Source: a bacterium UBP2_UBA2255
GTDB taxonomy: Bacteria > Edwardsbacteria > AC1 > EtOH8
Assembly: GCA_002347565.1 (NCBI GenBank)
Contig: DDXR01000038.1
Location: forward strand, 9,909 to 73,908
Reading direction: 5' to 3'
Length of the DNA stretch: 64,000 nt
Numbering within the stretch: position 1 is the stretch's first letter; every line of letters begins with the position of its first letter. Positions 2,888 to 55,401 of the stretch are shown here, piece after piece. The position numbers were made by a program, and so were the translations under genes. The notes beneath the pieces were generated by a model. It saw only the letters and a list, made by a program, of their open reading frames with translations, did no database searches and was not told the DNA's origin.

Positions 2888-3246
2888 AGCTTGGTCTTCT
2901 TGCTGATGCGGTTGCGCTCGTCCACGCAGACGATCCTGGGTTTGTGCCGCTTCGCCTGGGCGGTGGACAGCCAGCAGGACGAGATGATGATCACCTTGTC
3001 GCCCGGCATCCCCAGCCGCGCCGCCGCGCCGTTGAGGGTGATCACGCCCGACCCGGCCCGGCCCCGGATGGCGTAGGTCTCGAAGCGGTTCCCGTTGTTG
3101 ACGTTCACCACCTGCACGATCTCGTTGGGGAAGATGTCGGCCGCGGCCAGCAGCTTCTCGTCGACCGAGATCGAGCCCTCGTAGTGCAGGTTGACGTCGG
3201 TCAGCGTGGCCCGGTGGATCTTGGACTTGCAGAGGATTCTAAGCAT
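2884..3246 (-). CDS. panD: aspartate 1-decarboxylase
   Basis: MLRILCKSKIHRATLTDVNLHYEGSISVD...FETYAIRGRAGSGVITLNGAAARL closely matches PanD, including the YEGS pyruvoyl-forming serine. Confidence 0.93.
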   Translation of the reverse strand: MLRILCKSKIHRATLTDVNLHYEGSISVDEKLLAAADIFPNEIVQVVNVNNGNRFETYAIRGRAGSGVITLNGAAARLGMPGDKVIIISSCWLSTAQAKRHKPRIVCVDERNRISKKTKL

Positions 3247-3827
3247 TATCTGTTCCTACTAGCGATTACTACTTTCCAGTTCTTTATAAAATCATCTTCT
3301 ACCGAGTCGTTACTATAATGCCGAAGAATCATCATTGCGATAAAATATATAACTGCAAAAGAATAATGAATGTTCCATCCAACCAGATAGATCAAAGACA
3401 GTTTATAACAGCATAGTAAAACTAAAGGGTATATTGAAATTATTATCCCTAAAATCAGAAACAGCGCGGTCTGAGAATATGTGTACATTTTGATCGTGAA
3501 TTTACTTCTGTAGTTTCTCCAATCAATCTCCCAATTCGATTTTCTTGCAGCAATGAGGTACGAACTAAGTATACGTAAGTTAATCTTCATATTACAACTT
3601 AACCAATATATCATGCCGAGAAGTATGTATAAAAAAGTCGTGACAAAGAAAACATAGTTGTGTATTGATTGGTTTTCATTTATCAAAGCCTTCGGCGTTA
3701 CCCATGCTAGGACCACGCAGACAGCACTAATAGCAGCTGTAGATAATGCTACTCTCTGATTTACTAATTGAAGTATTTCCCCATGTACTTTCGCTATATC
3801 ACCAGCTTGTTTTGGATCTGTTGGCAT
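3246..3827 (-). CDS. hypothetical low-GC polytopic membrane protein (about 4 TM), embedded in the pan operon
   Basis: 582-nt ORF of ~30% GC in a ~68% GC genome, using AT-rich codons (AGA, ATA, TTA) and encoding several hydrophobic helices. It starts 8 nt after the panC stop and its stop overlaps the panD ATG by 1 nt (TAATG). I recognise no family. Confidence 0.55.
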   Translation of the reverse strand: MPTDPKQAGDIAKVHGEILQLVNQRVALSTAAISAVCVVLAWVTPKALINENQSIHNYVFFVTTFLYILLGMIYWLSCNMKINLRILSSYLIAARKSNWEIDWRNYRSKFTIKMYTYSQTALFLILGIIISIYPLVLLCCYKLSLIYLVGWNIHYSFAVIYFIAMMILRHYSNDSVEDDFIKNWKVVIASRNR

Positions 3828-3835
3828 TGAAACAC

Positions 3836-4678
3836 CTAAATAATAATATTGTCTATCAACCGTGCGCTGGAGAACCTCACCGCCAGCGCGACTAGTGTAT
3901 CGCCCGTGATCTTCTTGACAGGTTCGAGCGTCCGGTTGTCCACGATCCCGATGTAGTCGACCTCGCCCAGAGGCGCCTCGCGTGCGAGCATTTTCGTCAT
4001 TTCACGTTTCACCATTCCCGCTTCACGCCGGCCCGACCGCGCCAGCCATTTCGCCAGGTTGAGCGCATGATAGAGCGCCGGGGCCTGGGCCCGCTCGGCC
4101 GGCGTCAAGTAGGCGTTGCGCGAGCTCATCGCCAGGCCGTCCTTCTCCCGCACGATCGGGCCGACCACGAACTTCACCGGGAAGTCCAGGTCCCGCGCCA
4201 TCTGCCTGATCACCGCGGCCTGCTGGGCGTCCTTCTGGCCGAACACGGCGACGTCCGGACGCACCATGTTGAACAATTTCGAGACGACGGTGGCCACGCC
4301 CCGGAAATGCCCGGGCCGCGATGCGCCGCACAGCCCATCGGTCAGTCGTTCGACCGTGACGTACGTGCGGTAATCGTCGGGATAGACGTCCTGGACCCGG
4401 GGCGCGAAAATGAGGTCCGCGCCGGCGGTGCTGCACAGCGCCGCATCGCGCTGCAGCTCGCGCGGGTATTTCTTGAGATCCTCCTTGGGCCCGAACTGGG
4501 CCGGGTTGACGAAGATCGAGACCACGACGAACTCCGACGTGCGCTTCGCCAGCCGGATCAGCGAGAGGTGCCCCTGGTGCAGCGCGCCCATGGTCGGCAC
4601 CAAGCCGATGCCGCGGCCCTTTATTCGCTGCGCGGCGACCAGTTGTCGGAGCCGGGGGATCGTCTTAACGATCTTCAT
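3836..4678 (-). CDS. panC: pantoate--beta-alanine ligase
   Basis: LVPTMGALHQGHLSLIRLAK (HxGH), FVNPAQFGP, GHFRGVATVVSKLFN and VFGQKDAQQ are PanC signatures. Confidence 0.93.
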   Translation of the reverse strand: MKIVKTIPRLRQLVAAQRIKGRGIGLVPTMGALHQGHLSLIRLAKRTSEFVVVSIFVNPAQFGPKEDLKKYPRELQRDAALCSTAGADLIFAPRVQDVYPDDYRTYVTVERLTDGLCGASRPGHFRGVATVVSKLFNMVRPDVAVFGQKDAQQAAVIRQMARDLDFPVKFVVGPIVREKDGLAMSSRNAYLTPAERAQAPALYHALNLAKWLARSGRREAGMVKREMTKMLAREAPLGEVDYIGIVDNRTLEPVKKITGDTLVALAVRFSSARLIDNIII

Positions 4679-4756
4679 TTTCTTCACACAAAGACACTGA
4701 GACACAAAGGAAAACCCGTGATGGTCTTGGCGTCTTCGCGTCTTGGCGTTCGGTGG

Positions 4757-5569
4757 TTATTCCTCGTCGGAGAAGCTCTCGGCCATCGACGGGAACGCGC
4801 CCTGGCGCACATCGTCGATGTACGACGTGTAGGCACCGCGCATGGCCTTGGCGATGTCGGCGTACTTGCGCACGAACTTGGGCGTGAAGTCCTCGAACCG
4901 GCCGTCCATGTCGTCCACCACCAGGATCTGCCCGTCGCAGTGCGGCCCGGCGCCGATGCCGATGGTGGGGATGGCCAGCGCCTCTGTCACCTTTTTCGCG
5001 ACCTGGTGCGGGATCTTCTCCAGCACGATGGCGAAGCAGCCCGCCGCCTCCAGCGCCTTGGCCGCGGTCAGCAGGCGCTCGGCCGACTCCTTGTCGCGGG
5101 CCTGCAGCTTGTATCCGCCGAACTTGTGCACCGACTGCGGGGTCAGGCCCAGGTGGCCCATCACCGGGATGCCGCGCTCCACCAGGTTCTTGACGATCGG
5201 CGCCGCCACCCGGCCGCCCTCCAGCTTGACCGCCTCGGCCCCGGACTCCTTGAGGAATTTTCCGGCGTTGAGCGCGGCGTCGGCGATCGAGGTCTGGTAC
5301 GACAGGAACGGCATGTCGGCCACCACCAGCGCCCGCTTGACGCCCCGCTTGACGGCCGCGGTGTGGTAGAGCATGGCCTCCATGGTGATCGGCAGGGTGT
5401 TCTCGTAGCCGGCGAACACCATCGCCGCCGAGTCGCCCACCAGGATCATGTCGATGCCGCACTGGTCCAGCATCCGGGCGGTGAGGTAGTCGTACGCGGT
5501 CAGGGAGGCGATCTTCCGCCCCTGTTGCTTCATCCTGATCAGCGTGCTGGTGGTGACCTTGTCGCTCAT
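4757..5569 (-). CDS. panB: 3-methyl-2-oxobutanoate hydroxymethyltransferase
   Basis: KIASLTAYDYLTARMLDQCGIDMILVGDSAAMV...GIPVMGHLGLTPQS...AGCFAIVLEKIP matches PanB; start taken at MSDKV. Confidence 0.93.
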   Translation of the reverse strand: MSDKVTTSTLIRMKQQGRKIASLTAYDYLTARMLDQCGIDMILVGDSAAMVFAGYENTLPITMEAMLYHTAAVKRGVKRALVVADMPFLSYQTSIADAALNAGKFLKESGAEAVKLEGGRVAAPIVKNLVERGIPVMGHLGLTPQSVHKFGGYKLQARDKESAERLLTAAKALEAAGCFAIVLEKIPHQVAKKVTEALAIPTIGIGAGPHCDGQILVVDDMDGRFEDFTPKFVRKYADIAKAMRGAYTSYIDDVRQGAFPSMAESFSDEE

Positions 5570-15556: not shown

Positions 15557-17677
15557 TTAAGCGTTTTCTTGGCGGACGGCCGGGGTCGGCCAGCCGGCGA
15601 TCCGAGACCGCAGCAGCACCGCCAGGGCGTCGATGGCGCAGCGCTCCTGGGCCATGGTGTCGCGGTCGCGCACGGTCGCCGTGCCGTCCTGCAGGGTCTG
15701 GAAATCGACCGTGACGCAGAACGGCGTGCCGATCTCGTCCTGCCGCCGGTAGAGCTTGCCAATGCCGGCGGTGTCGTCGTACACGGCGCGGAAATCCGCC
15801 TGCAGCCGCTTCTTGACGCGCTGGGCCGTCTCGACGATGGCCGGCTCGTTCTTCTTGAGCGGCAGCACCGCCACGGTCACCGGGGCCAGCACCGGGTGCA
15901 GCCGCAGCACCACCCGGGTGTGCTCGTCGCACAGCCTGGCGCACGCCGCCCTGGCCTTCTTGACCAGGTCGAGCCGGTCGGCGCCGGGCAGGCCGCAGGC
16001 GCCGTCGACCTGCAGCAGCGAGTCCGGCAGCCCGGCCACGGCGGCGGCCAGCGCCGACTCGATGGTCCGCAGCTGCCCCGGCGTCGGGACGGCTTCGGCC
16101 GGCCGCTTCTCCGCCTCGGCGATCCGCTTGGCGATGTTCTTGAGGGCCGCCGCGGCGGCCTCGCGCAGCGGCGCCAGGGCCGCTTCCGCCGGCGCCGAGA
16201 GCTGCTCCTCCCCGTAGGCCTCGCACAGAAAAGCCAGCGTGGCCCGGGTGGCGCCGGCCGACGGCTCGATCACGAACGGGACGTACTTGGCGCCCTTCTT
16301 GCCGGTCTGCGGATCGGCGTAGGACTCGTCGAAGTACTCCAGCTTCTCCGTGGAGTGCCCGTTCCTGGCCAGCTTCAGCCGCGCCAGGGCGTCATCTGGC
16401 ACGTCCCGGCTGTGGGCCGTCAGGTCGTAGTCCTGGCGGTTGGCCACGCCCTCGATCTCGCTCCAGCCCAGGCTGCCCGGGAACAGGTACTCGATGTCCA
16501 CCGTGCGCTTGGCGTAGTGGGCCAGCTCCTTCGGCTCCTGCTCCCGCTGCCGCAGCCTGGCCGGGTCGATCCCCAGGCCGACGTACCAGCGGAACCGCGC
16601 CTGCAGCCACTCCTCGTGGAGCTGCTCGTCGTTCTTCTCGCCATCCTTCAGGAACCGCGGCGGCTTGCAGAAGTACTCGATCTCCATCTGCTCGAACTCG
16701 CGGGTGCGGAAGGTGAAGTTGCCGGGCGTGATCTCGTTGCGGAAGGCCTTGCCCACCTGGGCCACGCCGAACGGCAGCTTGCGCCGCGAGGACTGCAGGA
16801 TGTTGAGGAAATTGACGAAGATGCCCTGGGCGGTTTCGGGCCGCAGGTAGGTGAGGCCGGACTCGTCCTCCACCGGCCCGACATGGGTCCGGAACATGCC
16901 GTTGAACATCCGGGGCGCGGTCAGCTCGCCCCCGCACTCCGGGCATGTTTTTTCTAGGTATAACTCTAATTGTTCTACTTGATATGCTTTGACTTCGATG
17001 TTGAATTTCTTACCCCCTACAACCAAACATAAAGTCCCTCGACTATACAATGGCATTGATAGATGGTTAAAAGCAAAAAATATTGGGCCAGATGACGACT
17101 CTAGCTCCATGCCTACTGCTGGATCATAATAAGGGAATTCACCCGGTCTAGCTTTCCGTGTGATTGGAATCACAACATCGTTGTTAATGCAAAGTTTAAC
17201 GTCTTCGATCCTAACAACAGAGCCGGTTGCATTTGTTATGTCGATAAGACCTACTTTTAAGTACTTGTCATTGTTCTCATCAACGATTCGCACTACTCTT
17301 GATATCGCCTTGACACATATACCCTCACTACTGAATTCTCTGACAGAGTTGTAGGTAACTTGATCAGCACGATACCGCTTCTTACAATTTTTACAATCTT
17401 GAAGCGGGTCGGTGAAGGTGGCCTCGTGGCCGGAGTACTGCCAGACCAAACGGTTCATCAGGATGGCCGAGTCCAGGCCGTCCATGTCATCGCGGTCGTA
17501 GACCACGGCCTGCCACCAGGCGCGGATGACGTTGTTCTTCAGCTCCACGCCCAGCGGGCCGTAGTCCCAGGTGGAGCCCACGCCGCCGTAGATCTCGGAG
17601 GACTGGAACACGAAACCGCGCCGCTTGCAGAGCGAGACCAGTTTGTCGAAGGTGTTGTCGGGCTTATAGGGCTGCAT
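15557..17677 (-). CDS. glyQS: glycine--tRNA ligase (alpha2 type) carrying a ~150-aa low-GC in-frame insertion
   Basis: N-terminus MQPYKPDNTFDKLVSLCKRRGFVFQSSEIYGG, FRNEITPGNFTFRTREFEQMEIEYF and the C-terminal anticodon-binding domain match GlyRS. Residues ~93-246 are encoded by AT-rich DNA. Confidence 0.88.
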   Translation of the reverse strand: MQPYKPDNTFDKLVSLCKRRGFVFQSSEIYGGVGSTWDYGPLGVELKNNVIRAWWQAVVYDRDDMDGLDSAILMNRLVWQYSGHEATFTDPLQDCKNCKKRYRADQVTYNSVREFSSEGICVKAISRVVRIVDENNDKYLKVGLIDITNATGSVVRIEDVKLCINNDVVIPITRKARPGEFPYYDPAVGMELESSSGPIFFAFNHLSMPLYSRGTLCLVVGGKKFNIEVKAYQVEQLELYLEKTCPECGGELTAPRMFNGMFRTHVGPVEDESGLTYLRPETAQGIFVNFLNILQSSRRKLPFGVAQVGKAFRNEITPGNFTFRTREFEQMEIEYFCKPPRFLKDGEKNDEQLHEEWLQARFRWYVGLGIDPARLRQREQEPKELAHYAKRTVDIEYLFPGSLGWSEIEGVANRQDYDLTAHSRDVPDDALARLKLARNGHSTEKLEYFDESYADPQTGKKGAKYVPFVIEPSAGATRATLAFLCEAYGEEQLSAPAEAALAPLREAAAAALKNIAKRIAEAEKRPAEAVPTPGQLRTIESALAAAVAGLPDSLLQVDGACGLPGADRLDLVKKARAACARLCDEHTRVVLRLHPVLAPVTVAVLPLKKNEPAIVETAQRVKKRLQADFRAVYDDTAGIGKLYRRQDEIGTPFCVTVDFQTLQDGTATVRDRDTMAQERCAIDALAVLLRSRIAGWPTPAVRQENA
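16955..17395 (-). other. low-GC in-frame insertion inside the glyQS zinc ribbon (candidate intein-like or horizontally acquired insertion domain)
   Basis: ~440 nt of ~35% GC with AGA/ATA/TTA codons and no stop in frame. It separates the two CxxC knuckles (DCKNCKK ... CPECGG) by ~150 aa; without residues C121-T246 the knuckles would sit ~25 aa apart, as in typical GlyRS. Confidence 0.6.
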
Positions 17678-17817: not shown

Positions 17818-18360
17818 CTACCTGACCACGGTCAGCTTCTGGGTCAGGCTCCGTCCCGCTGCGGTCAGCCGCAGCAGGTAGACGCCGGTGGCCACGGTCC
17901 GGCCGCGCTCGTCCCGGCCGTTCCAGCGCACCGAGTGCCACCCCGCCGGCCGGTCGCCGTCGAGCAGCACCGAGACCTCCTGCCCGATGATGTTGTAGAC
18001 CCGCAGCAAAACGCGATCGTTGCGCGGCAGGCCGAACCTGATGGTGGGCTGCAGACCGGGGTTGGGCCAGGGGCGGTCCAAGGTCAGGTTTTTGGGGAGA
18101 GGTTGCGCAGTCCCGCCCTGTTGGTTCGCCGCCACGCCGGCGGGTCCGGCGCCGATGGGATAGAACCCGCCGGCCTCGTGGTAGCTCGCGCTGGCGGCCA
18201 TTCCGCCGAAGGGGAAGCCGGTCGAATGCTCGAGAAAATAGGACGCGGACGCCGCCTTGGCGGAGCCGCCGGACAAGCCGTCCTGCAGCAAGAGGAACTG
18301 CGCGGCCCCCGGCGAGGCCGCCAGCAGCGCCAGCAACATCACTGGTAGTATTATCTTCAT
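17818..18360 (-). CDS. small secreted protein with T9SS (Por) C-terminal sorting domain
   Basis: Signal peptide MKIILPVMLLALLAASPGAAQ. C-terminus RVYNIIGQEVSVLLDG...WNGRDERGRTVATGVYLLRLTAAGRSLTQKLTVVR is a type A T9SS CTD. Confidence 0.7.
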   Translation of the reverse strand: MKIILPVMLLALLAASPGAAQFLLLQDGLSGGSAKAASASYFLEHSTGFPFGGMAASASYHEAGGFYPIGAGPAGVAANQQGGTAQPLPKNLTLDRPWPNPGLQPTIRFGLPRNDRVLLRVYNIIGQEVSVLLDGDRPAGWHSVRWNGRDERGRTVATGVYLLRLTAAGRSLTQKLTVVR

Positions 18361-18368
18361 TGTTACAC

Positions 18369-19526
18369 TCACTTCCCGGGTATGGCAGTAAGTGGAATCC
18401 ACTTCCAGCCGGATGCAGTCTTGATGTAGAGGTAGTTATTGTCGTAGGTGACGTCTCCCACCTCGCCCCCGGGATAACTTCCCGAGGGAGGCGCTATGGT
18501 TGATTTGAAATTCAGTTTCCCGTCTATCTTGACGTTGCCCTCGAAAAATCCGGCGTAGTTTGTGCCATAACCAGAAGCGGTGGCGTACACGCCGTACTTG
18601 GTCGACGAACTGGTGCCACCATCGGCCGAGAAATGTCCGCCGTATACCAACCCGGCGTAGTTATCCACATTGGTTGTGGCCCATGATTTCACGCCATAAA
18701 CAGGTCCGCCATTGTAGAATAAATACGCATAGGCATTCACGCCCCGCCGTTCACCCGTGCCGGAACTGCTGCCATTCGTCTGGAAATCGCCGGCATATGC
18801 CGCACCCGCGCCGCCGTTGTCGGCCAACCCATAGATGGCCCGGCGCAGGCCGGTGGCATTGTTGCCATAAACGTTCGCGGCAATGCCGTTGGCCGTCCCG
18901 GCGCCGGTGTTGTAGACCGTATCGACATAGCCGTACACCGCCGAGCCGCTGGCGGCGTCGACCCGCAGCGACAGGCCCAGCGATCCGGGATTGACCGACC
19001 AGCGCTGGCCGATGTGGTTGTGCGCAGCCAGCGGTGCGCTGCCGGCGGTGGTGGCATAGGTGGCACTGTCGGCCCGGGTGGCATGACCGGCATTCGTGGC
19101 ATTGGTTGCGTTGGTCGCGTTGGTGGCATTCGTCGCGCTGGTGGCCAAGGCAGCCTGGTACGACCATACCGAACGGGCCGCGTGGGTGATCAGCTTGCGC
19201 GGAGACAACGTCTCGCCATTGACCGTCACTTCCAGGAACAACTGCTCCAGCTCGAAGAGATCCGGATCGAGGAGCTCCGACTGTCCCAGTACGATGTTGT
19301 AGAAACCCTTGGTGACCGGAACGGCGGCATGCACCTCCTGCCACAGCGGCGAGGCGCCGACCGCGACATCATAGATCCGCACGGCCATGTCGACCGCCTC
19401 GTTGAGGGGCAGGGTATCGGCCGCTCCCGCCAGGTAGCCTTGGTAGTTCAGGTAGATCAGCGGCGGGGCTGCCTGGGCCGTTCCCGCCAGGGCCAACGCG
19501 ACAATGGCCAACAATGTGAAGCGCAT
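18369..19526 (-). CDS. secreted Gly/Tyr/Asn-rich repeat protein with an (ATN)5 tandem repeat
   Basis: Signal peptide MRFTLLAIVALALAGTAQA, a central SATNATNATNATNATNA repeat, and a YG-rich C-terminal half ending ...YDNNYLYIKTASGWKWIPL. Confidence 0.55.
   Translation of the reverse strand: MRFTLLAIVALALAGTAQAAPPLIYLNYQGYLAGAADTLPLNEAVDMAVRIYDVAVGASPLWQEVHAAVPVTKGFYNIVLGQSELLDPDLFELEQLFLEVTVNGETLSPRKLITHAARSVWSYQAALATSATNATNATNATNATNAGHATRADSATYATTAGSAPLAAHNHIGQRWSVNPGSLGLSLRVDAASGSAVYGYVDTVYNTGAGTANGIAANVYGNNATGLRRAIYGLADNGGAGAAYAGDFQTNGSSSGTGERRGVNAYAYLFYNGGPVYGVKSWATTNVDNYAGLVYGGHFSADGGTSSSTKYGVYATASGYGTNYAGFFEGNVKIDGKLNFKSTIAPPSGSYPGGEVGDVTYDNNYLYIKTASGWKWIPLTAIPGK
19086..19130 (-). repeat. 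five tandem 9-nt repeats (GCNACNAAY) encoding (Ala-Thr-Asn)5
   Basis: gcattcgtggcattggttgcgttggtcgcgttggtggcattcgtcgc seen in sequence; creates five N-A-T sequons. Confidence 0.7.
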
Positions 19527-19799
19527 GGTGGTGCTCCCGTGTTGTGTTGGTGACGGTTTCGTGCGGGCGACATGGCAAGAAAAACCTCTGCGGAGCGTGA
19601 TCGCGACAGCGCTCCTCCGGAAATCCCAGGACCATCGATTGCCGACGTTCAGTCGCATATGATCTCCCGGAAAGCCACGGACCCTGCCGGTCATGCCGTG
19701 TCTCTTTCCGGGGAAATACTAGCAGAATGCCGGTTGCATATCAAGCGATCGCCGGAAAAGATTAATGGGATACCGGGAACTGGCGCCCGTTCACTGCTG

Positions 19800-20692: not shown

Positions 20693-23600
20693 CTATCTCA
20701 CCCGGACCAGCTTCTGGGTGCGGGCCTGATCATCGAACTCCAGCCGGACGAAGTACAGGCCGGCCGCGGCCGCCATCCGGCCGTTGTCGGTCCCGTCCCA
20801 GCGCGCGGCATAGTACCCCGCCTCCTGGCGCCCCTCGGCCAGGGTCCGCACCAGCTGGCCGGCCACATTGTAGACCTTCAGGCCGACCCTTCCGGTGCGC
20901 GGCAGCTGATAGCTGATGACCGCGCTGCCGGCGCAGGGATTGGGCGAGACCCGTTCCAGGCCGAAGGCCAGCGGCCTGAGGTCCAGGCTGCCGATCGGCC
21001 GGTCGCTGCAGATCACCGCGAACTCGCGCGATCCAGTCAGGGTGACCGCGACCGGTCCGGAGATCTCGGTGGCCGTGCCCAGCTTGCGGTCGACCAGGTA
21101 CGCGCGCTGGCCGGCGGCCAGGGCGCCGCTGGGCTCGAGCCGGATGGTCGCCCGGGCCTCGGGATCGGACTGCCGCACGACCAGCGGCCACTCCAGGTGC
21201 GCGGCCGGCGGCCGGAAATCGTAGTGGTAGGCCGCGCAGGGCCCCTGACCCCACTCGGGGTGCGGGATCTCGGCCGAGACGGCGTCCGACACCAGCGGCG
21301 GCTTCTCGGCATCCAGCCGGTCGTAGCCTGCGGCGGCCTGGGGAGAGACGCCCATCACCAGCCCGCGGTCCGCTCCGGCGTTGGACTCGACGTCGATCCG
21401 CACCTGCCACAGCTGATCAGCCGCTGGCGGCGATCCCACCCCCGGCTGCGCCTTGGCCGCCAAGAAACGCAGGTAGCAGCTTCCCACCGCGTATACCGCG
21501 TAGCCGCCCCAGGGCTGGATCTGCGAGCTCTCGTTGAACGGCGTCAGCGTGTCCCAAACGCCGTTGTTGTAGAGGTCGGGGCTGTTGTCGGTGTACGTCC
21601 ACACCCGCTGGCGCAGCATGGTGTTGTTGACGGCGCCGCTGTTGTCGTCGAACCGGTACGACGGTCCGGTGTCGCGGCTGACCTCGAGCCCGCCCAGCTG
21701 CAGCGCCGACAGGTAGGGATCCCCGAACAGGTTCCAGCCTGGCTCCATGGCCAGCACCGTCTGGGGATTGGTGTTCGGGGTGCAGCTGACGCTGAGCGTG
21801 GCGGTGTCGACCGTCGCCAGCCAGTAGCCGCGGCCGTTATGGACGGCCGGACGCTCGACATACCGGGCCTGCTGGGCACTGTAGCCGAACATCCGCCAGC
21901 TGGCGCTGCCGTATGAGCCCAGCGAAGGTCCGAGCGCCCCCACCGCGGTCGACTCGGCCGGGATGGCCGGGATCGACATCAGCTGGTAGCGGCGTCCCGG
22001 CCAAAGGGTCGTGACCGCCTGCGGGCTGGCCGTCGTGAATATGGCACCGGCGACCCCCGCCAGCGGGTTCCCGGAACTGTCGCGGGCGCCGGTGACGGTG
22101 AACGAGTACTCGGTCGCCGGGGCGAACCGGGCGTGGGACAGCGTCAGGTAGGTGCCGGCCGCGTTCCAGCTGCGGGACCATCCGGACACCGCCGGGCTGC
22201 AGACGAAGGTGACGCTGGTGTCCGTCACGCCCTTGGAGAACCCGATCACCACGTCCTGCGTCAGTCCGACGCCGGTGTCGCCGTTGGCGGGCGAGAGGGA
22301 TACGACCGCGGGTGCGCCGCTGTCGAAGGGCGCCCATATCGCAAATGAATCGCGGCCCAGCGTGAAGTCGAAGGAGTCCGCGAAGGCGCCGGCGTGGCCG
22401 AGCACGATCGCTCCGCCGTCGGCGGCGGCGCCGGGGTTGCGCTGCGCGACGGCCGGGCCGGACCAGCCCGGCAGGGCTCCGCGCCGGTAGCGGCCGGCGG
22501 CCATGGCCGCCTCGTGCGCCGCTTCGGTGAAGCCGGGAGGGTTGAAGTCGGCCGGGGTATAGGACAACCGGAGATCGAACCCGCCCAGCGCGATGCCGGT
22601 GGAGGCGAACGTCCAATGCTTGCGCAGGCAGGCCGCGGCGTTGGACACCATGGGATGGGGCTGGCCGCTGACGCCGGCGCTGACGTAGCCCGGTGCGCTG
22701 GGGCTGAATGGCTGCAGCTGGACCGGCGAGTAGCCGGCGGCCACGGTGCCAAGGTCGTAGGCCACCAGGGTGTCGCTGGTCCGGATGTACCGCCGCAGGG
22801 TGCCGTCGATATATCCGCCGGCCCGGGTGACAGAACCCGTACTGTCGACGGTCAGCGTGCGGCCGCCGGTGACCAACGCGCCCTGGGCCAGGGACAGGTT
22901 CCCGGCGACCGTCCGGTCGGCGTGCAGCGTCAGCGGCCCGCCGGTGCTGACCGAGACGTTGCGGGGCCCGTCGCTGACCGGGAACTCGCCTTCGCCGGTG
23001 ATGCCGGCGCCGGCCAGCTCATAGACCAGGCTGGCCGCCGGCCGGTACTGCAGCCAGTTGCTGTTGACCGCCCCGCTCCGCCGGACGCAGGCGCCCCTGA
23101 TCGGCAGCGGGGCGCCCAGGTTGACGCCGGCAGTGCGATCCAGCACCAGGGTGTCGAGGCCGGAGACCGTTGCCGGGATCAGGATGGGCGCGGGATCGTT
23201 GCCGGCCACGGCCAGCCGCGATGTGCTGTCCGCCAGCAGGTCGCCGCCGAAGTAGCCGATCTGCCCCAGCAGCGCCAGGCGGCGGGCGCCGACCCGCAGG
23301 GCTCCGGCGTTCAGCTTCAGCGTATCCCGCACCGCAAGGTTCCGCGTCAGGATGACGTTGTCACCGGAGCTCTCGACCACCAGCTGTCGCACCGTGTCCG
23401 GGAAGCCGGGGCCGGTCGGATACGGGCCGGTCGACAGCGAATAGAAGAAGTAGTCGGCGTCCTGGCTGTACTGCCGGGCGCCTCCGACCCGCACCGGTCC
23501 CAGGTCCTGGCCGGGCGGATGCAGTCCCTCGACGTCGGTCATCCCCAGCGCGGCGCCAGGCAGCAGCTGGAACCAGCCCAGGCTGTTCTGCCCGACGTTG

Positions 23601-25642
23601 CTCCATTGCTCGATCACCAGGAAGGCGCCGGGATCGACCCGGTAGTTGACGTGGCCGGTCAACATCTCGCCGCTGGCGGAGTAGCGCTGCATGGCGGCAC
23701 CGCAGAAGACGATGGTGGTCGAGTCCGGCCCGCCGCCGGCGATTCCGGCCACAAGGTGATAGTAATCGCCCCGCAGGAAGAGCGTGGAGATGCCGGGGCT
23801 GGACGTGTCCGTCAGGTGGAGCCAGGCGGGATCGTAGACGGTGAAGCTTCCGTTGACCGTGACCGAGCGCATCCCGCCGCCGCCCAGGACGACTTCGTTG
23901 CCGCTCCCCTGGAGCAGGAGATCGCCGTTGATGGTCAGATCCGGCACCGCCGGGCTGGTCAGGAACAGCCGGCTTCCCCCCGTCGACATCACCTCGAGCC
24001 CGCGCAGGGCGAATGCCGGCCCGCCGGGTAGAACGATGTCGCCGGACTGGTCGGGGCAGTACCAGCGGATTTCGCCGAAGGACTGGTTCATCCCCGCGGG
24101 AGCCAGGTTCTGGACATCCGCAATGTAGAGCGTGGAGAAGGGGCTCCAGTCTGCCGTCGGGATCGCGCCGCCGTTGACGGCATGGGTGTACTGGCTGTAG
24201 GCGTCGAACACCAGCGTCGCGCCCGGCGACTGGGTGAAGCTCCCGCCGGAGAACTGGTAGACGCCGCTGACGAACAGATCGTCTCCCAGGCCGTCGGCGA
24301 TCGTCAGGTCGGATCCCAGCTGCGCCAGCGTGCCCTCGACGCGCAGCTGGTCGATCGTGATGGCCGGGCCGCCGATGTCAAGGATGATGGCATGGCCGGC
24401 CTGGATGGTGACGATGCTGTCGCCGACGCCCGATGGGCAGAGGCTGTCCGGGTTGCCCCAGGTCAGGCCGCCGTTGTCCGAGTACTCCCACGAGGAGGGC
24501 GCCAGCCACTGCCCGCTCGCCGTCGCGCTGCGCCAAATGCGGCCTGGCACCTTGCCGATCACCGGCACCCAATCCAGGCCGCTGGCCGCCACGTAGACGT
24601 CGCCGCCGTTGTCCACCTTCAGGTCCACCGGGCGGGCATAGGCGGCACCCAGGTAAACGCTGGCCGCCAGCAGCGGGCTGGCGCCCCGGGGGTCGACGAT
24701 CCGGACATAGCCGTTGTTGCAGTCGGCGCAGTAGATCAGCGAGTCGGACGGGTTGTAGACGATGGCGGCGATCGAGTCGCCCACGGCCACCGAGTCGGCG
24801 TTCCCCAGCTCGTCGATGGCGTACAACGAGCGGCTGCTGGCCCCGTTGCAGGCGACGAACATCTTGTTATTGAGCGGGCACAGCGCGAACCCGGCCGGGT
24901 TATCACCGACGATGGGGCTGGCCAGCAGCATGTTGCTGGCGGTGTTGATGATCGCCACGCGGTCGACCAGGGAGAGGGCCGCGTACAGGCGGCTGATTGC
25001 CGGGTTCGCCCCCATCCGCTTGTTGCCGGAGGCCAGGCCCGAGATCTCGAGGGCCGCGACCTTGGCGTTGGTCGCGCCGCTGAACACGCCCAGCGAGTCG
25101 CCGCTGTACCAGGGGATGTAGACGCTGTTGGTCGGCTGGTAGTACAGCATCGGGCCGGCGAAGCCGTTGATGGCGGCGTTGTAGGTGTAGCCCGCGGAGT
25201 TGTAGACGTGGGTCTGCCCCGAGAAGTCGTCGAACAGGTAGATCTTGCCGTTGTCCGGGTTGTACTCCACCGCCAGCCCGCCCTGGAACCCGCCCACGGT
25301 CGTGTCCTCGGTGTTGGCAGCGCAGTCGATGGCGCACAGCTCGTCATTGCCTTTCATGTAAAGCAGATTGGCGGCAGCGTTGTACACCATCGGGCCGGTC
25401 ATGAACGAACCAGGCAGCTGCCCCAGCGACGAATCGTTGGCGCAATTCACCGCCAGCACCATGTTGTAAGCGTTGGCGGCGCAGTACATCCGGTTGCTGG
25501 CCGGGCTGAAGCCGAGATTCAGCAGCTGCGGTCCGGTGGCGCCCACGATGATCTGCTTCTTGACGCCATAACTGGCTGCCGACAACAACGTGGCGGGAAT
25601 GAGCAAACAAACCGCCATGATGCCGATCGTCCGATTTCTCAT
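20693..25642 (-). CDS. giant (1649 aa) T9SS-secreted surface protein: N-terminal YVTN/NHL-type beta-propeller repeats, beta-helix-like region, Ig-like (SbsA/Big_5-like) domain, C-terminal Por sorting domain
   Basis: Signal peptide MAVCLLIPATLLSAASYG. Repeated NP-x-x-x-LY/VYV propeller blades (YNPSDSLIYCADCNNGYVRIVD and similar). Ig-like VVSLSPANGDTGV...VTFVCSPA. T9SS CTD GLKVYNVAGQLVRTL...GLYFVRLEFDDQARTQKLVRVR. Confidence 0.7.
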   Translation of the reverse strand: MRNRTIGIMAVCLLIPATLLSAASYGVKKQIIVGATGPQLLNLGFSPASNRMYCAANAYNMVLAVNCANDSSLGQLPGSFMTGPMVYNAAANLLYMKGNDELCAIDCAANTEDTTVGGFQGGLAVEYNPDNGKIYLFDDFSGQTHVYNSAGYTYNAAINGFAGPMLYYQPTNSVYIPWYSGDSLGVFSGATNAKVAALEISGLASGNKRMGANPAISRLYAALSLVDRVAIINTASNMLLASPIVGDNPAGFALCPLNNKMFVACNGASSRSLYAIDELGNADSVAVGDSIAAIVYNPSDSLIYCADCNNGYVRIVDPRGASPLLAASVYLGAAYARPVDLKVDNGGDVYVAASGLDWVPVIGKVPGRIWRSATASGQWLAPSSWEYSDNGGLTWGNPDSLCPSGVGDSIVTIQAGHAIILDIGGPAITIDQLRVEGTLAQLGSDLTIADGLGDDLFVSGVYQFSGGSFTQSPGATLVFDAYSQYTHAVNGGAIPTADWSPFSTLYIADVQNLAPAGMNQSFGEIRWYCPDQSGDIVLPGGPAFALRGLEVMSTGGSRLFLTSPAVPDLTINGDLLLQGSGNEVVLGGGGMRSVTVNGSFTVYDPAWLHLTDTSSPGISTLFLRGDYYHLVAGIAGGGPDSTTIVFCGAAMQRYSASGEMLTGHVNYRVDPGAFLVIEQWSNVGQNSLGWFQLLPGAALGMTDVEGLHPPGQDLGPVRVGGARQYSQDADYFFYSLSTGPYPTGPGFPDTVRQLVVESSGDNVILTRNLAVRDTLKLNAGALRVGARRLALLGQIGYFGGDLLADSTSRLAVAGNDPAPILIPATVSGLDTLVLDRTAGVNLGAPLPIRGACVRRSGAVNSNWLQYRPAASLVYELAGAGITGEGEFPVSDGPRNVSVSTGGPLTLHADRTVAGNLSLAQGALVTGGRTLTVDSTGSVTRAGGYIDGTLRRYIRTSDTLVAYDLGTVAAGYSPVQLQPFSPSAPGYVSAGVSGQPHPMVSNAAACLRKHWTFASTGIALGGFDLRLSYTPADFNPPGFTEAAHEAAMAAGRYRRGALPGWSGPAVAQRNPGAAADGGAIVLGHAGAFADSFDFTLGRDSFAIWAPFDSGAPAVVSLSPANGDTGVGLTQDVVIGFSKGVTDTSVTFVCSPAVSGWSRSWNAAGTYLTLSHARFAPATEYSFTVTGARDSSGNPLAGVAGAIFTTASPQAVTTLWPGRRYQLMSIPAIPAESTAVGALGPSLGSYGSASWRMFGYSAQQARYVERPAVHNGRGYWLATVDTATLSVSCTPNTNPQTVLAMEPGWNLFGDPYLSALQLGGLEVSRDTGPSYRFDDNSGAVNNTMLRQRVWTYTDNSPDLYNNGVWDTLTPFNESSQIQPWGGYAVYAVGSCYLRFLAAKAQPGVGSPPAADQLWQVRIDVESNAGADRGLVMGVSPQAAAGYDRLDAEKPPLVSDAVSAEIPHPEWGQGPCAAYHYDFRPPAAHLEWPLVVRQSDPEARATIRLEPSGALAAGQRAYLVDRKLGTATEISGPVAVTLTGSREFAVICSDRPIGSLDLRPLAFGLERVSPNPCAGSAVISYQLPRTGRVGLKVYNVAGQLVRTLAEGRQEAGYYAARWDGTDNGRMAAAAGLYFVRLEFDDQARTQKLVRVR

Positions 25643-25824
25643 GGTTGCTCCCTTTCTAGGAGATGTGTATAACGACTAAATCTTGCAATAGCCATGCCAA
25701 ACACACCGATATCTATAATTCATTATTTATCAAATGGTTGACTAATGATATCTTTATGGAAACAACCAATGACATTATGATTTTTCATATCTATTACTGT
25801 CTAGCATTGCTGTTTTTTATATCA

Positions 25825-26250
25825 TCAGTCTGTCTCCACTTCAATATCGATCTCATCGATTTCCAAAGGATTATTCGGCAATGGAACAGTGATGGCGTCT
25901 TGCATATCGAACAACCGGGAAGCTTGTTGTTTTTTCCTCGCTCGCCTGGTGATTGGCATGGCCCCCGCGCTGGCGGCTTCGTTCTCCGGGGCCCGCTTCC
26001 CGCTGGCGGTCCTCTGCCGGAGCAGCGCCGCGGGGTTCAGCGAGATGCCGCTCTGCGACAGGCGCTGGTCCAGGCCGGTGGCGAAATTGCCGCCCTCGTC
26101 CAGCGCGGCCATCAGCTCGGCCAACGCCTCGTCTGACAGATTCAGCCCCAGCGTTCCGACGGTGCCCTCCAGGTCGGATTCCAGCCGGCGGCGGAACTCG
26201 TCGTCCGCGAGCGCGCGGTCGAGGATCAGCTGGACGTCTTTATCCGTCAT
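25825..26250 (-). CDS. Nif11/NHLP-like leader-domain protein (leader ends in GG) with an 85-aa Cys-free acidic C-terminal region
   Basis: MTDKDVQLILDRALADDEFRRRLESDLEGTVGTLGLNLSDEALAELMAALDEGG resembles Nif11/nitrile-hydratase-leader-peptide type RiPP leaders, including the terminal GG. GGAGGAG RBS 7 nt upstream. Assignment by pattern only. Confidence 0.35.
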   Translation of the reverse strand: MTDKDVQLILDRALADDEFRRRLESDLEGTVGTLGLNLSDEALAELMAALDEGGNFATGLDQRLSQSGISLNPAALLRQRTASGKRAPENEAASAGAMPITRRARKKQQASRLFDMQDAITVPLPNNPLEIDEIDIEVETD

Positions 26251-48887: not shown

Positions 48888-49421
48888 TCAGATCCTTCGC
48901 CCGATTTTCTTCGCTGGCACACCACCAACAATAACATAGGGTTCTACATCCCTTGTCACAACGGCACCAGCACCGACAACTGCGCCATCCCCAATATTCA
49001 CGCCAGCAAGAATGATCACACCTGCGCCGATCCAAACATCATTCCCTATCTTGACGGGCTTATTGATCAGGGGCTGCTGCAAGATCATTTTTGTGCTTCT
49101 CTTGATGCCATGCTCATTCGTAAAAACCATCAACCCTGGGCCGATCATCACGTCGTGGCCTATTTCTATTTTTTCATCGGCGTTCAAGATCGCATTCAAA
49201 CCGATGCTTGAGTTATCGCCGATAAAAATGTTCCAGTAGTAGTTCAATTGGGCGCCTGGCTGTATGTTCACATTTCTCCCCATCTTCCCGACAAAATAGC
49301 GCAGAAAAGCGACCCGAGCTCTGGAACCAAAAGATTTGGCATCACGGGGTGCCGGTAAATCCTTCAGGAAAAGTGCGTAGAATAGCATGATCGCCTTTTC
49401 CAGATTATACTTGAGGCTCAT
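48888..49421 (-). CDS. hexapeptide-repeat sugar O-acetyltransferase (LbH family; WbbJ/MAT-like)
   Basis: IGDNSSIG...[10 protein letters not shown]...[31 protein letters not shown] hexapeptide repeats; ~47% GC, lower than the flanks. Confidence 0.8.
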
Positions 49422-50590
49422 TTCGCAACGTACCTTTCGATGATGTCGCATAGTTCCTCCACTCTCGCACCCCAGCTCCAACCAGACACCTGCCCGGTAA
49501 TGCGGGCCTGTATTGCTGCCCGATCGACCGGTGTCAGACATGCGTCGATGTACCGCGAAAAGACGGCTCGATCCTGCGATACCATAACATGTTCCTTCAA
49601 TGAATCATCCACTGGTACTGTTGAAACCACCATTTTCCCGGAAGCTTTATATTCAAGCAGTTTCAGTGGAAATCTGGAGCGCACAAATTCCTTATATCGG
49701 CCATCACATATCCATGGTATCAAACAGACAGCGAACGGCTTCAAGTAGGCTGGCAATGAGGTCCATGGCTTTGCCCCAAGGTAATGCATGTTTGTATTGC
49801 CATCAATCAGAAGCTTCAAACGCTCTCGACAGTCGTCCGTAACCGGTCCGATAAACACAAAACTCCTCCCCGCGTTTTGCGAGACTACGTATTCTAGTAA
49901 ATTGTAATCCAAGCCGGCATCGATCATGCCAACATAACCGATAATGGGGGGTGATATTCGCGAGATATCCTCTGGCACAGATAGCGGTTGTTGATTCTGC
50001 AAGTAAAAATGTTCGTCAACACCATGCTTAAACAACACGGCATTGGTGTTCATCGATTTGCATTTATCAAACAATGCCTCGGTAATAGCCAATGGTACGG
50101 TTACATTCGTGATCATTGCCTTTTCCCTGTTCTCCATCACTGAACGGAATTGACCGGAGTAGATTTCGGGGAAATTATCCGAGCAATGATAGACCGTGCA
50201 GGCAGCATCGGGGAAGGCGTCCAGCAAAAACGTATTCCAGGGGTTGCCCAGGAACAGTATCAGCTTGCTCGGGTCATACCGGCCCAGGGCGTGTTTGATC
50301 TGTGCGACAAAATACTTCGGATCGGCCGTGTTCATGACGAAATCGAACTTGTTCTTCCACGGCAGTTCCGAGGGCGACAGCACGGTCAGGCTTTCGTTCC
50401 CGGGCCGCCAGGCGCGCCCGGCCAGCGCCGCCAGCCCGTATTCCCCGACCTGCGCGTCAAGCGGCCGCGGGGGGTCGACAAAAATGACCCGGTTCTTTTT
50501 GGCCAGCCGGGACATGATGTGGTGCTTGCTGTAGCGGTTGCGGTTCCAGGGGATATTGGAGTCGCAAACTATGGTGTATCCCTCGATCAT
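49418..50590 (-). CDS. glycosyltransferase-like protein (GT1-related fold, weakly supported)
   Basis: 390-aa soluble protein in the glycan locus whose stop overlaps the acetyltransferase ATG; lower GC. Fold assignment is tentative. Confidence 0.4.
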
Positions 50591-53242: not shown

Positions 53243-54234
53243 CCCGCCGCCTTCAGCAATCGGTCGCCCAACCTGACCAGCGGATGATAGGTCCTTGTCT
53301 GCGTGGATCTCAGCCACAGGTGCGTCAGTTTCTCCAGCGCGTTCCGAGGATCGCTGAACGTTCCGGTCTGGCCGGTCTTGCGGGCGATCGCGTCCCAGTC
53401 GACGTCCCAAATCGCCTGCTGGGAGAAATGCCCGGCCCCGTGCTTCCCGAACCAGCCAAGCACCTCGCGGTCGAACCAGTAGACATCGTCCTTTGTCACC
53501 GTCCGCATGTCGATCCCGGCTGCCTCGTAGGCGGCGAACCAGACGGGCCCGACCGGCTTGATCTGCCCGGCGGCGACGGCGTCCATGTGGTGGTACTGGC
53601 GGTAGAGGTCGACCGCGGACCGGCGCGGGTCGCGCAGCTGTTCCAGGCACACGTACCAGCGGTGCTTGCTTTTCATTCGGTCCCAGTCGGCGTACTGGTA
53701 ATGCAGCACCGCCCCGCGGTCGATCGTCACGATCGGACGATCAGGGTTCTTGGGCAGCCGGTCGCCATGCTGGAGTCCGCCCTGATACGGTCGGCCGTCG
53801 TCTGAATAGAAAATCCCTTTGTTGTTCGCGGCCCGCCAAAACGTTGCCAGGCCCGGCATCAGGTTCACCCAGGGCAGCGCGACCGTCGTCCCCGGCGCGG
53901 CGCCCAGCACGCCCTTCCAGATATCCGTGCCGAACACTTCGGCAGACAGGACTTCGTCGGCATCAAGCTGCGCCAGGATGCGCGGGCCGGACTGTTTCCG
54001 GGCCTCGTCGATCAGCAGCGACATCCGGGCGTGCTCGTTGTACAGGCTGGTGTCCGGGTTGTCCAGCACAGTGACCTTGGGGAACCCGCTCGCGATGGCG
54101 ACGGTATCATCGCTGGAATTCTGGTCGGCGACGATGATGCGGTCGGCCCACAAGCTGGCGCAGGCGAGGAAGCGCCCGATGATCCAGGCCTCGTTGCGGA
54201 CGGGCGTCAGGCAAATGACGGCGGGTTTCGCCAT
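53236..54234 (-). CDS. glycosyltransferase family 2-like protein
   Basis: AVICLTPVRNEAWIIGRFLACASLWADRIIVADQNSSDDT is a GT-A fold N-terminus. Confidence 0.6.
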   Translation of the reverse strand: MAKPAVICLTPVRNEAWIIGRFLACASLWADRIIVADQNSSDDTVAIASGFPKVTVLDNPDTSLYNEHARMSLLIDEARKQSGPRILAQLDADEVLSAEVFGTDIWKGVLGAAPGTTVALPWVNLMPGLATFWRAANNKGIFYSDDGRPYQGGLQHGDRLPKNPDRPIVTIDRGAVLHYQYADWDRMKSKHRWYVCLEQLRDPRRSAVDLYRQYHHMDAVAAGQIKPVGPVWFAAYEAAGIDMRTVTKDDVYWFDREVLGWFGKHGAGHFSQQAIWDVDWDAIARKTGQTGTFSDPRNALEKLTHLWLRSTQTRTYHPLVRLGDRLLKAAGW

Positions 54235-54252
54235 CTCAGATAACTGGGCCTA

Positions 54253-55401
54253 TCAAATGCTCTCCTGAATGACCGATTCATAAACCCGCTGCATTGACTT
54301 GGCGGCCTTTTCCCAGGCATATTGCATCGATCGCGCCTTGCCCATCTCTATCAATTCATCCCGTTTGTGCTGATTGTGTAACACTGTATTAACTGCACTT
54401 CGCAGTGCGCTAGGGTCCTTGGGCGGGAAGAAGACAGCCGCATCACCCGCAACTTCCCTATGGCAGCTTGTTTCGCTCGCAACAACTGGGCATTCGCACC
54501 GGAATGCTTCAGCGATGGGGAGAGAGAAACCTTCGTACAACGAAGGCACGATCAATAACTCAGCATTGGTGTAGAGATCTGCAAGCATGTGGTCGTTTGC
54601 AGCAACCTGAATGACATTCTCGGCGATTCCAAGCCCGGAAAAATAGGATCGTTCTATCCCTGAAAAAGGATTTTCGTTCGCGCATACCAATAGATACGGC
54701 TTGCTGCCGGACAGGAGCGGTCGTATCGCTTGGCATAGGAAATGAAAATTCTTGTATCCCGATCTTCTTCCGACATACAAGAAATACTTGCGTGGATATT
54801 GAGAACCTGTCGGCGCATTTCCTCTCCGACTCTGCAAGGATACCCCATGGTGTATCACGGTTATCTTTTGATGGGGGACACACAGAAAATCTATAATTTG
54901 CTTTTTAGTATTCTCCGAAACGGCAACAATATGGTTGGCCCTGTTGATTAAATCCCGTTTATAGAACAATAACGGGTCTTGGAGTGAATATTCAGGGTAC
55001 GTTTCTTGGAACATATCATGAACCGTGAGGACGAAAGGCTTCCTTCCGATCGCTGGCAGGAAGTAGGGGTCGTGGTAGGTTGGATGGAAGAGGTCATAGC
55101 GGTGCCGGTTGTTTGCCAACCACCGGTTAGCAAGTCGGCGGTTTTCGGCAAGCCGATCACTCACATATCTCGGTCCGCCAAACACAGCACGGATCCTGTT
55201 CCTGAAAGATGGATAGGGAATCTCCATCTGCAACCGTCCCAGTGCGCCATCGTCAGCCGCATATTGGTTCTGTCCGTAATAACGGGGAATCTGGATATCC
55301 ACGCCCAGCAATCGCATATGGCTGATGATCTCGAAAAAATAGCGACTTATCCCGCCATACCGTTGCATGCCGAAAATCTGGCCGTCGTATGCGACCTTCA
55401 T
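54253..55401 (-). CDS. glycosyltransferase family 1 (GT4)
   Basis: LIVPSLYEGFSLPIAEAFRCECPVVAS; ~45% GC. Confidence 0.8.
   Translation of the reverse strand: MKVAYDGQIFGMQRYGGISRYFFEIISHMRLLGVDIQIPRYYGQNQYAADDGALGRLQMEIPYPSFRNRIRAVFGGPRYVSDRLAENRRLANRWLANNRHRYDLFHPTYHDPYFLPAIGRKPFVLTVHDMFQETYPEYSLQDPLLFYKRDLINRANHIVAVSENTKKQIIDFLCVPHQKITVIHHGVSLQSRRGNAPTGSQYPRKYFLYVGRRSGYKNFHFLCQAIRPLLSGSKPYLLVCANENPFSGIERSYFSGLGIAENVIQVAANDHMLADLYTNAELLIVPSLYEGFSLPIAEAFRCECPVVASETSCHREVAGDAAVFFPPKDPSALRSAVNTVLHNQHKRDELIEMGKARSMQYAWEKAAKSMQRVYESVIQESI

Follow-up and report, generated by a model that had tools for sequence, protein, structure and literature searches.

Aminoacyl-tRNA synthetases are among the most constrained proteins. 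Mosaic alleles, of which those of the penicillin-binding-protein genes are an example, arise by short-patch replacement with foreign homologous DNA. A candidate for such an allele is glyS, the gene of the glycyl-tRNA synthetase (GlyRS), in the Edwardsbacteria bacterium UBP2_UBA2255, where an AT-rich, in-frame tract lies between the two CxxC zinc knuckles of the enzyme. The gene is part of a 64,000-nucleotide (nt) stretch of contig DDXR01000038.1, which was analysed as a whole and is called the window. As in known mosaic alleles, the tract is a sharply bounded internal block of other composition and saturated synonymous divergence within a gene that is otherwise near-identical to its relative; unlike them, it adds 133 residues without a homologue, and donor and recipient would stand about 30 GC points apart.

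Three further systems come close to this locus. In alpha2 GlyRS, insertion domain 1 comes after the first core strand, and the loop between its knuckles faces the acceptor-arm side of the tRNA in the solved bacterial enzymes; in M. thermoresistibile GlyRS a largely disordered helical insert lies between the knuckles, near the acceptor arm (PMC12208437). The site in the window is the same as in the M. thermoresistibile and T. thermophilus enzymes (PMC12208437; 8U2Q, 8SLD, 1ATI), and GlyRS of other species likewise carry variable, partly disordered inserts at this site that face the acceptor arm (PMC12208437). However, those inserts are 13-50 residues long, host-like in composition and lineage-wide, whereas the stretch between the knuckles in the window counts 146 residues and is AT-rich and strain-specific. 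Rickettsia palindromic elements (RPEs) and other in-frame MITEs (miniature transposable elements with inverted repeats) offer a second likeness: they look like selfish DNA, lie in frame within housekeeping genes and are translated into an additional segment at the protein surface (PMC10969869). RPEs are about 150 bp long, multi-copy and palindromic, and occur in many unrelated genes (PMC10969869); the window block differs in being 408-459 bp long (three times longer), single-copy and gene-specific, in having no terminal repeats or target duplication, and in carrying a homologue of the host flank. The third likeness is to mini-inteins, which also form in-frame blocks of about 130-150 amino acids (aa) in conserved essential genes, with foreign composition, presence or absence among near-identical hosts, co-converted adjacent host codons and a Cys after the insert. 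Unlike them, the window insert has no Hint blocks and no match to a hidden Markov model (HMM), has the wrong residues at both junctions, and no excision is in evidence.

With moderate confidence, the tract is read here as a recent, laterally acquired block that is translated in frame and not spliced, which would make this glyS a mosaic allele changed in a tolerant loop. The block has a foreign composition, is absent from near-identical relatives, is preceded by a recoded flank, keeps an open frame, and bears no signature of an intein, intron or transposon; it sits in insertion domain 1, in the loop that separates the two zinc knuckles. The host protein itself is a dimeric (alpha2) class II GlyRS, with the class II core, the HGTP domain and full-length similarity to known members. 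Its Pfam matches are tRNA-synt_2b (PF00587) and HGTP_anticodon (PF03129), and among PDB sequences phmmer aligned it with T. thermophilus GlyRS (1ATI, E 6e-135) and a mycobacterial GlyRS (8U2Q, E 8e-132), each time in three blocks that skip query residues ~108-241 and 495-585. The identical 706-aa protein is recorded in both the NCBI and the ENA assemblies, and over 6.7 kb the window and the ENA contig are identical (100%).

The argument for acquisition draws on the comparison with the closest database relative, the 573-aa protein P0001 (locus L001) from the metagenome-assembled genome (MAG) GCA_025453955.1 of Candidatus Edwardsbacteria. P0001 is 95% identical in amino acids and has no block. 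The host part of its gene is 96.1% identical in nucleotides to that of the window, with proportions of nonsynonymous (pN) and synonymous (pS) differences of 0.019 and 0.101, and is still under purifying selection. The neighbourhoods resemble each other as well, with a gene for a FlgD_ig-domain protein upstream and response-regulator and glycine-cleavage genes downstream. P0001 has DCKSCKKRFRADHVT-GPR-CPECGG at this place; its counterpart in the window is DCKNCKKRYRADQVT-(136 aa)-CPECGG. In the DNA alignment the identity drops exactly at codon 92 and is restored at codon 245 (Cys245), and the flanking DNA, taken over 50 codons to each side, is 95-96% identical to L001. The original prediction had delimited the insert as C121-T246 and proposed an alignment with bacterial alpha2 GlyRS sequences; the alignment with insert-free P0001 does delimit it, at different residues, with Y109-T244 replacing Gly-Pro-Arg for a net gain of 133 aa and the DNA junctions at codons 92 and 245.

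The boundary at the protein level (T108/Y109) thus differs from that at the DNA level (Leu92), and the AT-rich DNA begins 17 codons upstream of the new residues. In these codons, 92-108, the window encodes LQDCKNCKKRYRADQVT and L001 encodes LVDCKSCKKRFRADHVT, nearly the same peptide from DNA of 62.7% identity. Nearly all synonymous sites differ, i.e., they are saturated, and 13 of the 19 differences are G/C to A/T changes (a GC-to-AT bias of 13:1). The tract also has Q93 and Q106 in place of V93 and H106, at positions that are at least 90% conserved among 65 clade sequences. Since the first 17 foreign codons are a recoded homologue of the knuckle-1 region, the donor DNA would be glyS-like; and because the foreign DNA carries a homologous, independently evolved copy of knuckle 1, random DNA capture and transposition are excluded. 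In the manner of a mosaic allele, the foreign block thus includes a homologue of the segment that it replaced, at 62.7% identity against 96.1% for the rest of the gene. An identifiable donor lineage, the other mark of such alleles, was not found, as no relative of the insert turned up in any collection searched. The coordinates of these features are collected in Table 1.

Table 1. Coordinates of glyS, of the parts of its AT-rich tract and of the site-2 inserts of related loci (window positions unless a locus is named).
Feature	Coordinates	Strand	Basis
glyS, dimeric (alpha2-type) glycyl-tRNA synthetase, 706 aa including the insert	15557..17677	minus	ORF, Pfam, PDB similarity, relatives
Whole foreign AT-rich tract, codons 92-244 (153 codons, 459 nt)	16946..17404	minus	composition and L001 DNA alignment
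Recoded homologous 5' flank, codons 92-108 (LQDCKNCKKRYRADQVT), holding zinc knuckle 1	17354..17404	minus	DNA 62.7% identical to that of L001
Zinc knuckle 1, C95-K-N-C98, foreign copy in AT-rich codons	17384..17395	minus	read from sequence
Added coding part, codons 109-244: 136 aa, a net gain of 133, in place of native Gly-Pro-Arg	16946..17353	minus	absent from P0001
Zinc knuckle 2, C245-P-E-C248, GC-coded and host-like; 3' junction directly upstream	16934..16945	minus	sequence and L001 alignment
Site-2 inserts of related GlyRS genes (P0020, P0021, P0027, P0016)	L002:3974-4369; L008 (glyS 3001-5094, codons 137-270); L004 (glyS codons 137-264); L005:3194-3649		

The composition of the tract is equally distinct. 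The drop of about 440 nt to ~35% GC that had been predicted inside glyS is real, although the GC of the tract is ~39% overall; only its lowest 150-nt windows reach 0.36. The tract has a GC of 0.39 and a GC at third codon positions (GC3) of 0.35, against 0.69 and 0.96 in the remaining gene, and an index modelled on the codon adaptation index (CAI) falls from 0.84 to 0.17, so that windowed GC and codon adaptation both mark it as foreign. For example, AGA (3), ATA (4), TTA (4), CTA (3), GTT (7) and GTA (5) all occur in the tract and are absent from the other 553 codons. The coding frame has no stop, while each of the other five frames has 6-17; the probability of such an open frame is 1.2e-5 from base composition, and none of 20,000 shuffles was open. 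Hence the description of the segment as in frame, stop-free and rich in AT-biased codons (AGA, ATA, TTA) stands. The GC dip is absent from the glyS of L001, and in the 64-kb window the tract is the sole low-GC3 segment inside a high-GC gene. A promoter scan found four sigma-70-like sites where 0.6 were expected, an excess that is the normal yield of AT-rich DNA and no evidence of function.

The loop that received the block varies among relatives. C95, C98, C245 and C248 are invariant across the clade, and in the window 146 residues separate the two pairs. The original prediction had put the knuckles ~150 aa apart, which agrees with this count, and had taken ~25 aa as the usual spacing, which does not agree with the native 13: the spacing is exactly 13 residues in 41 of the 49 scorable clade members and 30-51 residues in the other eight, two of which had their DNA checked and show a host-like GC3 of 0.77-0.80. 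The 133-aa block is absent from all 64 aligned clade relatives. The same prediction held that high-GC relatives with a segment of the same length at normal GC would make it an ancestral domain; as none of the 64 carries one, the acquisition hypothesis survives.

Two other insertions were seen in GlyRS. In Rokuibacteriota (L047, L070, L077) an extra Cys-rich segment, FCPATKGNKFTIPAGExCxHCG, lies between the knuckles at a host-like GC3 of 0.93-1.0, and is another instance in which the loop between the knuckles is a hot spot for insertions. The window GlyRS also has a second insertion, aa 495-585 (window 15923-16195), placed between the catalytic and anticodon-binding domains and predicted to be helical. 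Its GC is very high (76-80%), and it is not found in the T. thermophilus or mycobacterial enzymes; it would be ancestral and clade-specific, because it is present in all aligned clade members.

Similar blocks occur at a second site in related enzymes. Four GlyRS of the same clade (P0020, P0021, P0027 and P0016, 687-752 aa) have an insert of 128-152 aa about 20 residues downstream of site 1; it follows GPVQ[D/E/S] and closely precedes the active-site loop YLRPETAQG. These site-2 inserts have a GC3 of 0.18-0.29, against 0.76-0.84 in host genes, and are open in one frame only. Their ratio of nonsynonymous to synonymous substitution rates (dN/dS) is 0.22-0.49, which argues that they are translated. 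Between P0020 and P0021 the synonymous divergence (dS) is 0.60 in the insert and 0.53 in the host, and the GC3 of the insert is still very low; since it has stayed low despite a dS of ~0.6, similar to that of the hosts, the AT bias appears to be maintained in place. P0021 was assembled on 4 contigs from at least two SRA runs. The inserts gave no match in Pfam, NCBIfam (including its intein HMM) or PHROG, and the nucleophiles at their junctions are not conserved.

The distribution of the site-2 inserts is patchy. P0016 has the insert and P0004, 94% identical in amino acids, does not; likewise, P0027 has it and P0019 (92% identical) does not. In all four carriers the flanking ESGL has become ESNL or DSNL, and upstream of the P0016 insert about 13 codons are AT-shifted. 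The flanks of the P0016/P0004 pair are 73-78% identical in nucleotides, against 94% for the host, with GC-to-AT changes of 10:2 and 7:0. In the more divergent P0027/P0019 pair the flanks (81-87%) do not stand out from the host (86.5%), and show AT bias only. Within a few kb around the carriers, glyS alone has an intragenic GC3 dip, and no such dip was found in any of 80 GTDB GlyRS loci from other phyla, where all apparent dips were upstream non-coding sequence in stop-to-stop frames.

From these observations, the following course of events may be proposed. A foreign segment of 459 nt would have replaced 20 native codons (LVDCKSCKKRFRADHVTGPR in the nearest allele) by short-patch replacement, with the 5' junction falling inside codon 92 and the 3' junction just before Cys245. 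The donor would have been glyS-like: it may have been a diverged allele rich in AT, or else an element moving together with flanks of glyS. The 136 new codons would be translated and their product retained in the mature enzyme as an outgrowth of the inter-knuckle loop, a putatively permissive site whose length already varies in relatives (13 to 51 residues). That the window insert is translated and not spliced is suggested by the purifying selection on the sister site-2 inserts. It probably forms a beta-rich excrescence that projects from the tip of the zinc ribbon, as eight beta strands appeared in both of two independent, low-confidence AF2 runs. Because the ends of the insert meet at the zinc ribbon, the catalytic core need not be disturbed, and the insert would most likely be neutral, i.e., a tolerated passenger or selfish DNA in a permissive loop and not a part of catalysis.

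The search for a donor was extensive. An exhaustive phmmer search of 1.84 billion cluster representatives gave no credible relative of the insert; its single match, P0121 (2211 aa with 14 SPOR-like repeats), was rejected, as each repeat matched weakly and the score was judged a summed-repeat artefact. No match came from GTDB genomes, JGI metagenomes or IMG/VR, all scanned by pattern plus tblastn, nor from phage and plasmid searches; PHROGs gave sub-threshold noise only, and PDB sequences a single non-significant match (E 0.13). A word-indexed search also had no match, an uninformative result since the window protein is hidden under P0001, and this search missed the site-2 carriers too when queried with their own alignment. 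The window GlyRS (P0122) belongs to a 90%-identity cluster whose representative, P0001, has no insert, so representative-based searches are blind to insert-bearing alleles of similar GlyRS; the DNA scans of GTDB, JGI and IMG/VR are free of this blind spot. No paper describing an intein or an AT-rich insert in GlyRS was found in the literature searched. The AF2 single-sequence model of the insert alone had a pLDDT of 47.5, and Foldseek of this low-confidence model against the PDB gave no match at E <= 0.001 and no intein or Hint structure in the top 50; the full-length model, made with 65 sequences, had a pLDDT of 56, its core itself being poorly modelled.

Several points weigh against acquisition from a foreign donor with retention in the enzyme. 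The donor was not found in any database searched or in the genome, metagenome, phage and plasmid scans. Classical RecA recombination is implausible between DNA of ~39% and ~69% GC, a gap too large for ordinary homologous recombination to account for the joining. All carriers known so far are GC-rich hosts with AT-rich inserts, which fits an AT bias intrinsic to the element at least as well as an AT-rich donor. As site 1 is represented by a single sequence, it yields no dN/dS, and the translation and retention of the window insert are argued by analogy only. The two assembly records with the insert allele may come from the same reads, and the low confidence of both AF2 models makes a folded domain tentative.

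The strongest competitor of lateral replacement, though unlikely, is a homing-like selfish element specific to the glyS of Edwardsbacteria/TA06, which would be inserted in frame, consist of the AT-rich block together with short flanks of glyS, pass between alleles by conversion-type repair in the manner of inteins, never be spliced, and be AT-rich by its own nature. Two sites 20 residues apart in glyS carry AT-rich blocks in related lineages, and the position of site 2 is identical in three host sub-lineages, each with a closer insert-free relative. The flanks are clearly co-converted in two of the three pairs of carrier and insert-free relative (window/L001 and P0016/P0004), the third showing AT bias only. 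The low GC3 of 0.18-0.29, kept in P0020 and P0021 at the divergence given above, fits such an element, as do the failure to find an AT-rich organism with a native copy and the absence of a GC3 dip from the 80 GlyRS genes of other phyla. AT bias is, moreover, a known pattern of host-dependent elements (PMC6519830). On the other hand, site-1 and site-2 inserts are not detectably homologous (BLASTP E 0.08 on a 23-residue motif; hhalign probability 1.9%), and a common origin of the two was rejected. No endonuclease or mobility gene lies in or beside the insert, site 1 is known from one sequence only, and ordinary indel polymorphism with allelic recombination would give the same pattern. It may tentatively be proposed, at slightly lower confidence still, that these glyS genes host a previously undescribed gene-specific mobile module: AT-rich and in frame, site-specific and patchy, with co-converted flanks, no Hint domain and no endonuclease, retained in the enzyme and with its AT-richness actively maintained. 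Such modules would form at least two unrelated families flanking the second knuckle, with the window as the sole known site-1 member.

That the block is a degenerate or non-canonical mini-intein removed by protein splicing, one of the two readings offered in the original prediction, is very improbable. Its size of 133-136 aa would suit a mini-intein, it lies in frame within a gene that is conserved and essential, its foreign composition, patchy distribution and flank co-conversion are intein-like, and Cys245 follows it directly. The intein-like geometry of an insert starting with Cys, however, had rested on the arbitrary boundary at C121; the comparison with P0001 makes Tyr109 the first new residue, which is not Cys, Ser or Ala, and leaves C121 12 residues inside. 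The Cys after the insert is indeed there, but is no evidence of an intein because Cys245 is an invariant zinc ligand. As had been noticed, the insert lacks a terminal His-Asn and clear Hint blocks: it ends ...LYLEKT, so that its last residues are Lys-Thr and not His-Asn, Gln or Asp, its one His is in FNHLS, and the TxxH of block B is absent. The proposed search against intein and Hint profiles gave no match in Pfam (E <= 1) or NCBIfam (E <= 10), and the intein was rejected on these profiles together with the junction residues. No Hint structure was among the Foldseek matches, which came from a poor model, and the site-2 inserts have neither conserved junction nucleophiles nor intein HMM matches. 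The block thus resembles inteins in its population behaviour and fails the intein tests on junction residues, block B and profiles. The other reading of the original prediction, a horizontally acquired insertion of unknown function, is supported and made more precise by the foreign composition, the recoded flank and the absence of the block from a relative 96% identical in nucleotides.

Just as improbable is an ancestral, lineage-specific GlyRS domain that relatives have precisely lost, or an intron at the RNA level whose frame is open by chance. Some relatives do carry lineage-specific inserts of 30-51 aa at normal GC in the inter-knuckle loop, but none of the 64 aligned clade members has the block, which shows no amelioration of its composition and has a recoded flank. 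The size would suit a small group I intron. A structured RNA, whether a group I or a group II intron, was nevertheless rejected: there was no Rfam match at E <= 1, and the minimum free energy (MFE) was no lower than that of shuffles (z-score -0.59). The open frame has a chance probability of ~1e-5, and the sister inserts evolve as coding sequence. A transposon or MITE was rejected likewise: neither terminal inverted repeats nor a duplicated target site mark the junctions, and the insert occurs once in the window. A repeat search of 16700-17650 found no repeat pair at the junctions, and a second copy was found neither in the 64-kb window (blastn and tblastn, self only) nor in the genome, metagenome and viral scans.

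Least probable of all is a chimera of metagenome assembly, with glyS reads of an AT-rich organism joined into a GC-rich contig: the source is an assembly from an uncultured organism and its two records of the allele, 100% identical, may share reads, but both junctions would need to be in frame and stop-free, no k-mer is shareable across a 69%/39% GC boundary, both zinc knuckles are preserved exactly once, and inserts of a similar kind are seen again at site 2 in assemblies from JGI and Logan, in one case on contigs of two or more independent runs.

A few other features of the window may be recorded. Upstream of glyS (window 17818-19694 against L001:1-1872) the window and the closest MAG do not have their genes in the same order; the two 441-aa surface-protein genes are only 33% identical, and a 49-nt stretch at 17828-17876 matches L001 at two places. 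This suggests a local rearrangement or cassette exchange. A low-GC island (37%) at 3211-3900 is wedged exactly between panC and panD. It holds a stand-alone ORF (3246..3827, minus strand) for a multi-pass membrane protein of 193 aa without a Pfam family, whose stop overlaps the panD start codon, and the last ~7 codons of panC are AT-coded; the island repeats what is seen in glyS, where the margin of the host gene is recoded by an AT-rich block. A 300-nt intergenic stretch of low GC (37%, minimum 26%) at 25621-25920 lies directly upstream of the start of a gene for a 1649-aa secreted/T9SS-type protein (20693..25642, minus strand). Finally, at 48900-50300 and 54200-57000 whole genes have ~45-52% GC; they encode glycosyltransferases, a hexapeptide acetyltransferase, a radical-SAM-like protein and an ABC-transporter ATPase, and look like an ordinary horizontally acquired polysaccharide-biosynthesis island and not like in-frame inserts.

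The locus has consequences for how conserved genes are read. Databases of cluster representatives systematically hide insert-bearing alleles of such genes, and AT-rich in-frame inserts can confuse the annotation of inteins, checks of MAG quality and alignments of phylogenetic markers. For the enzyme, a strain-specific addition of 133 residues by the acceptor-arm side of the active site is a measure of how much foreign sequence an essential protein absorbs. The recoded flank preserves a direct trace, of a rare kind, of the entry of such a block, and points to replacement from a glyS-like donor and not to transposition. In sister lineages a second site carries AT-rich blocks that are unrelated, show the same footprint and are under purifying selection; this recurrence suggests that the process is repeatable. 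Should a homing-like element that does not splice prove to be the cause, it would add a new category to the selfish DNA of bacterial coding sequence, and novel protein domains would have a natural source in it.

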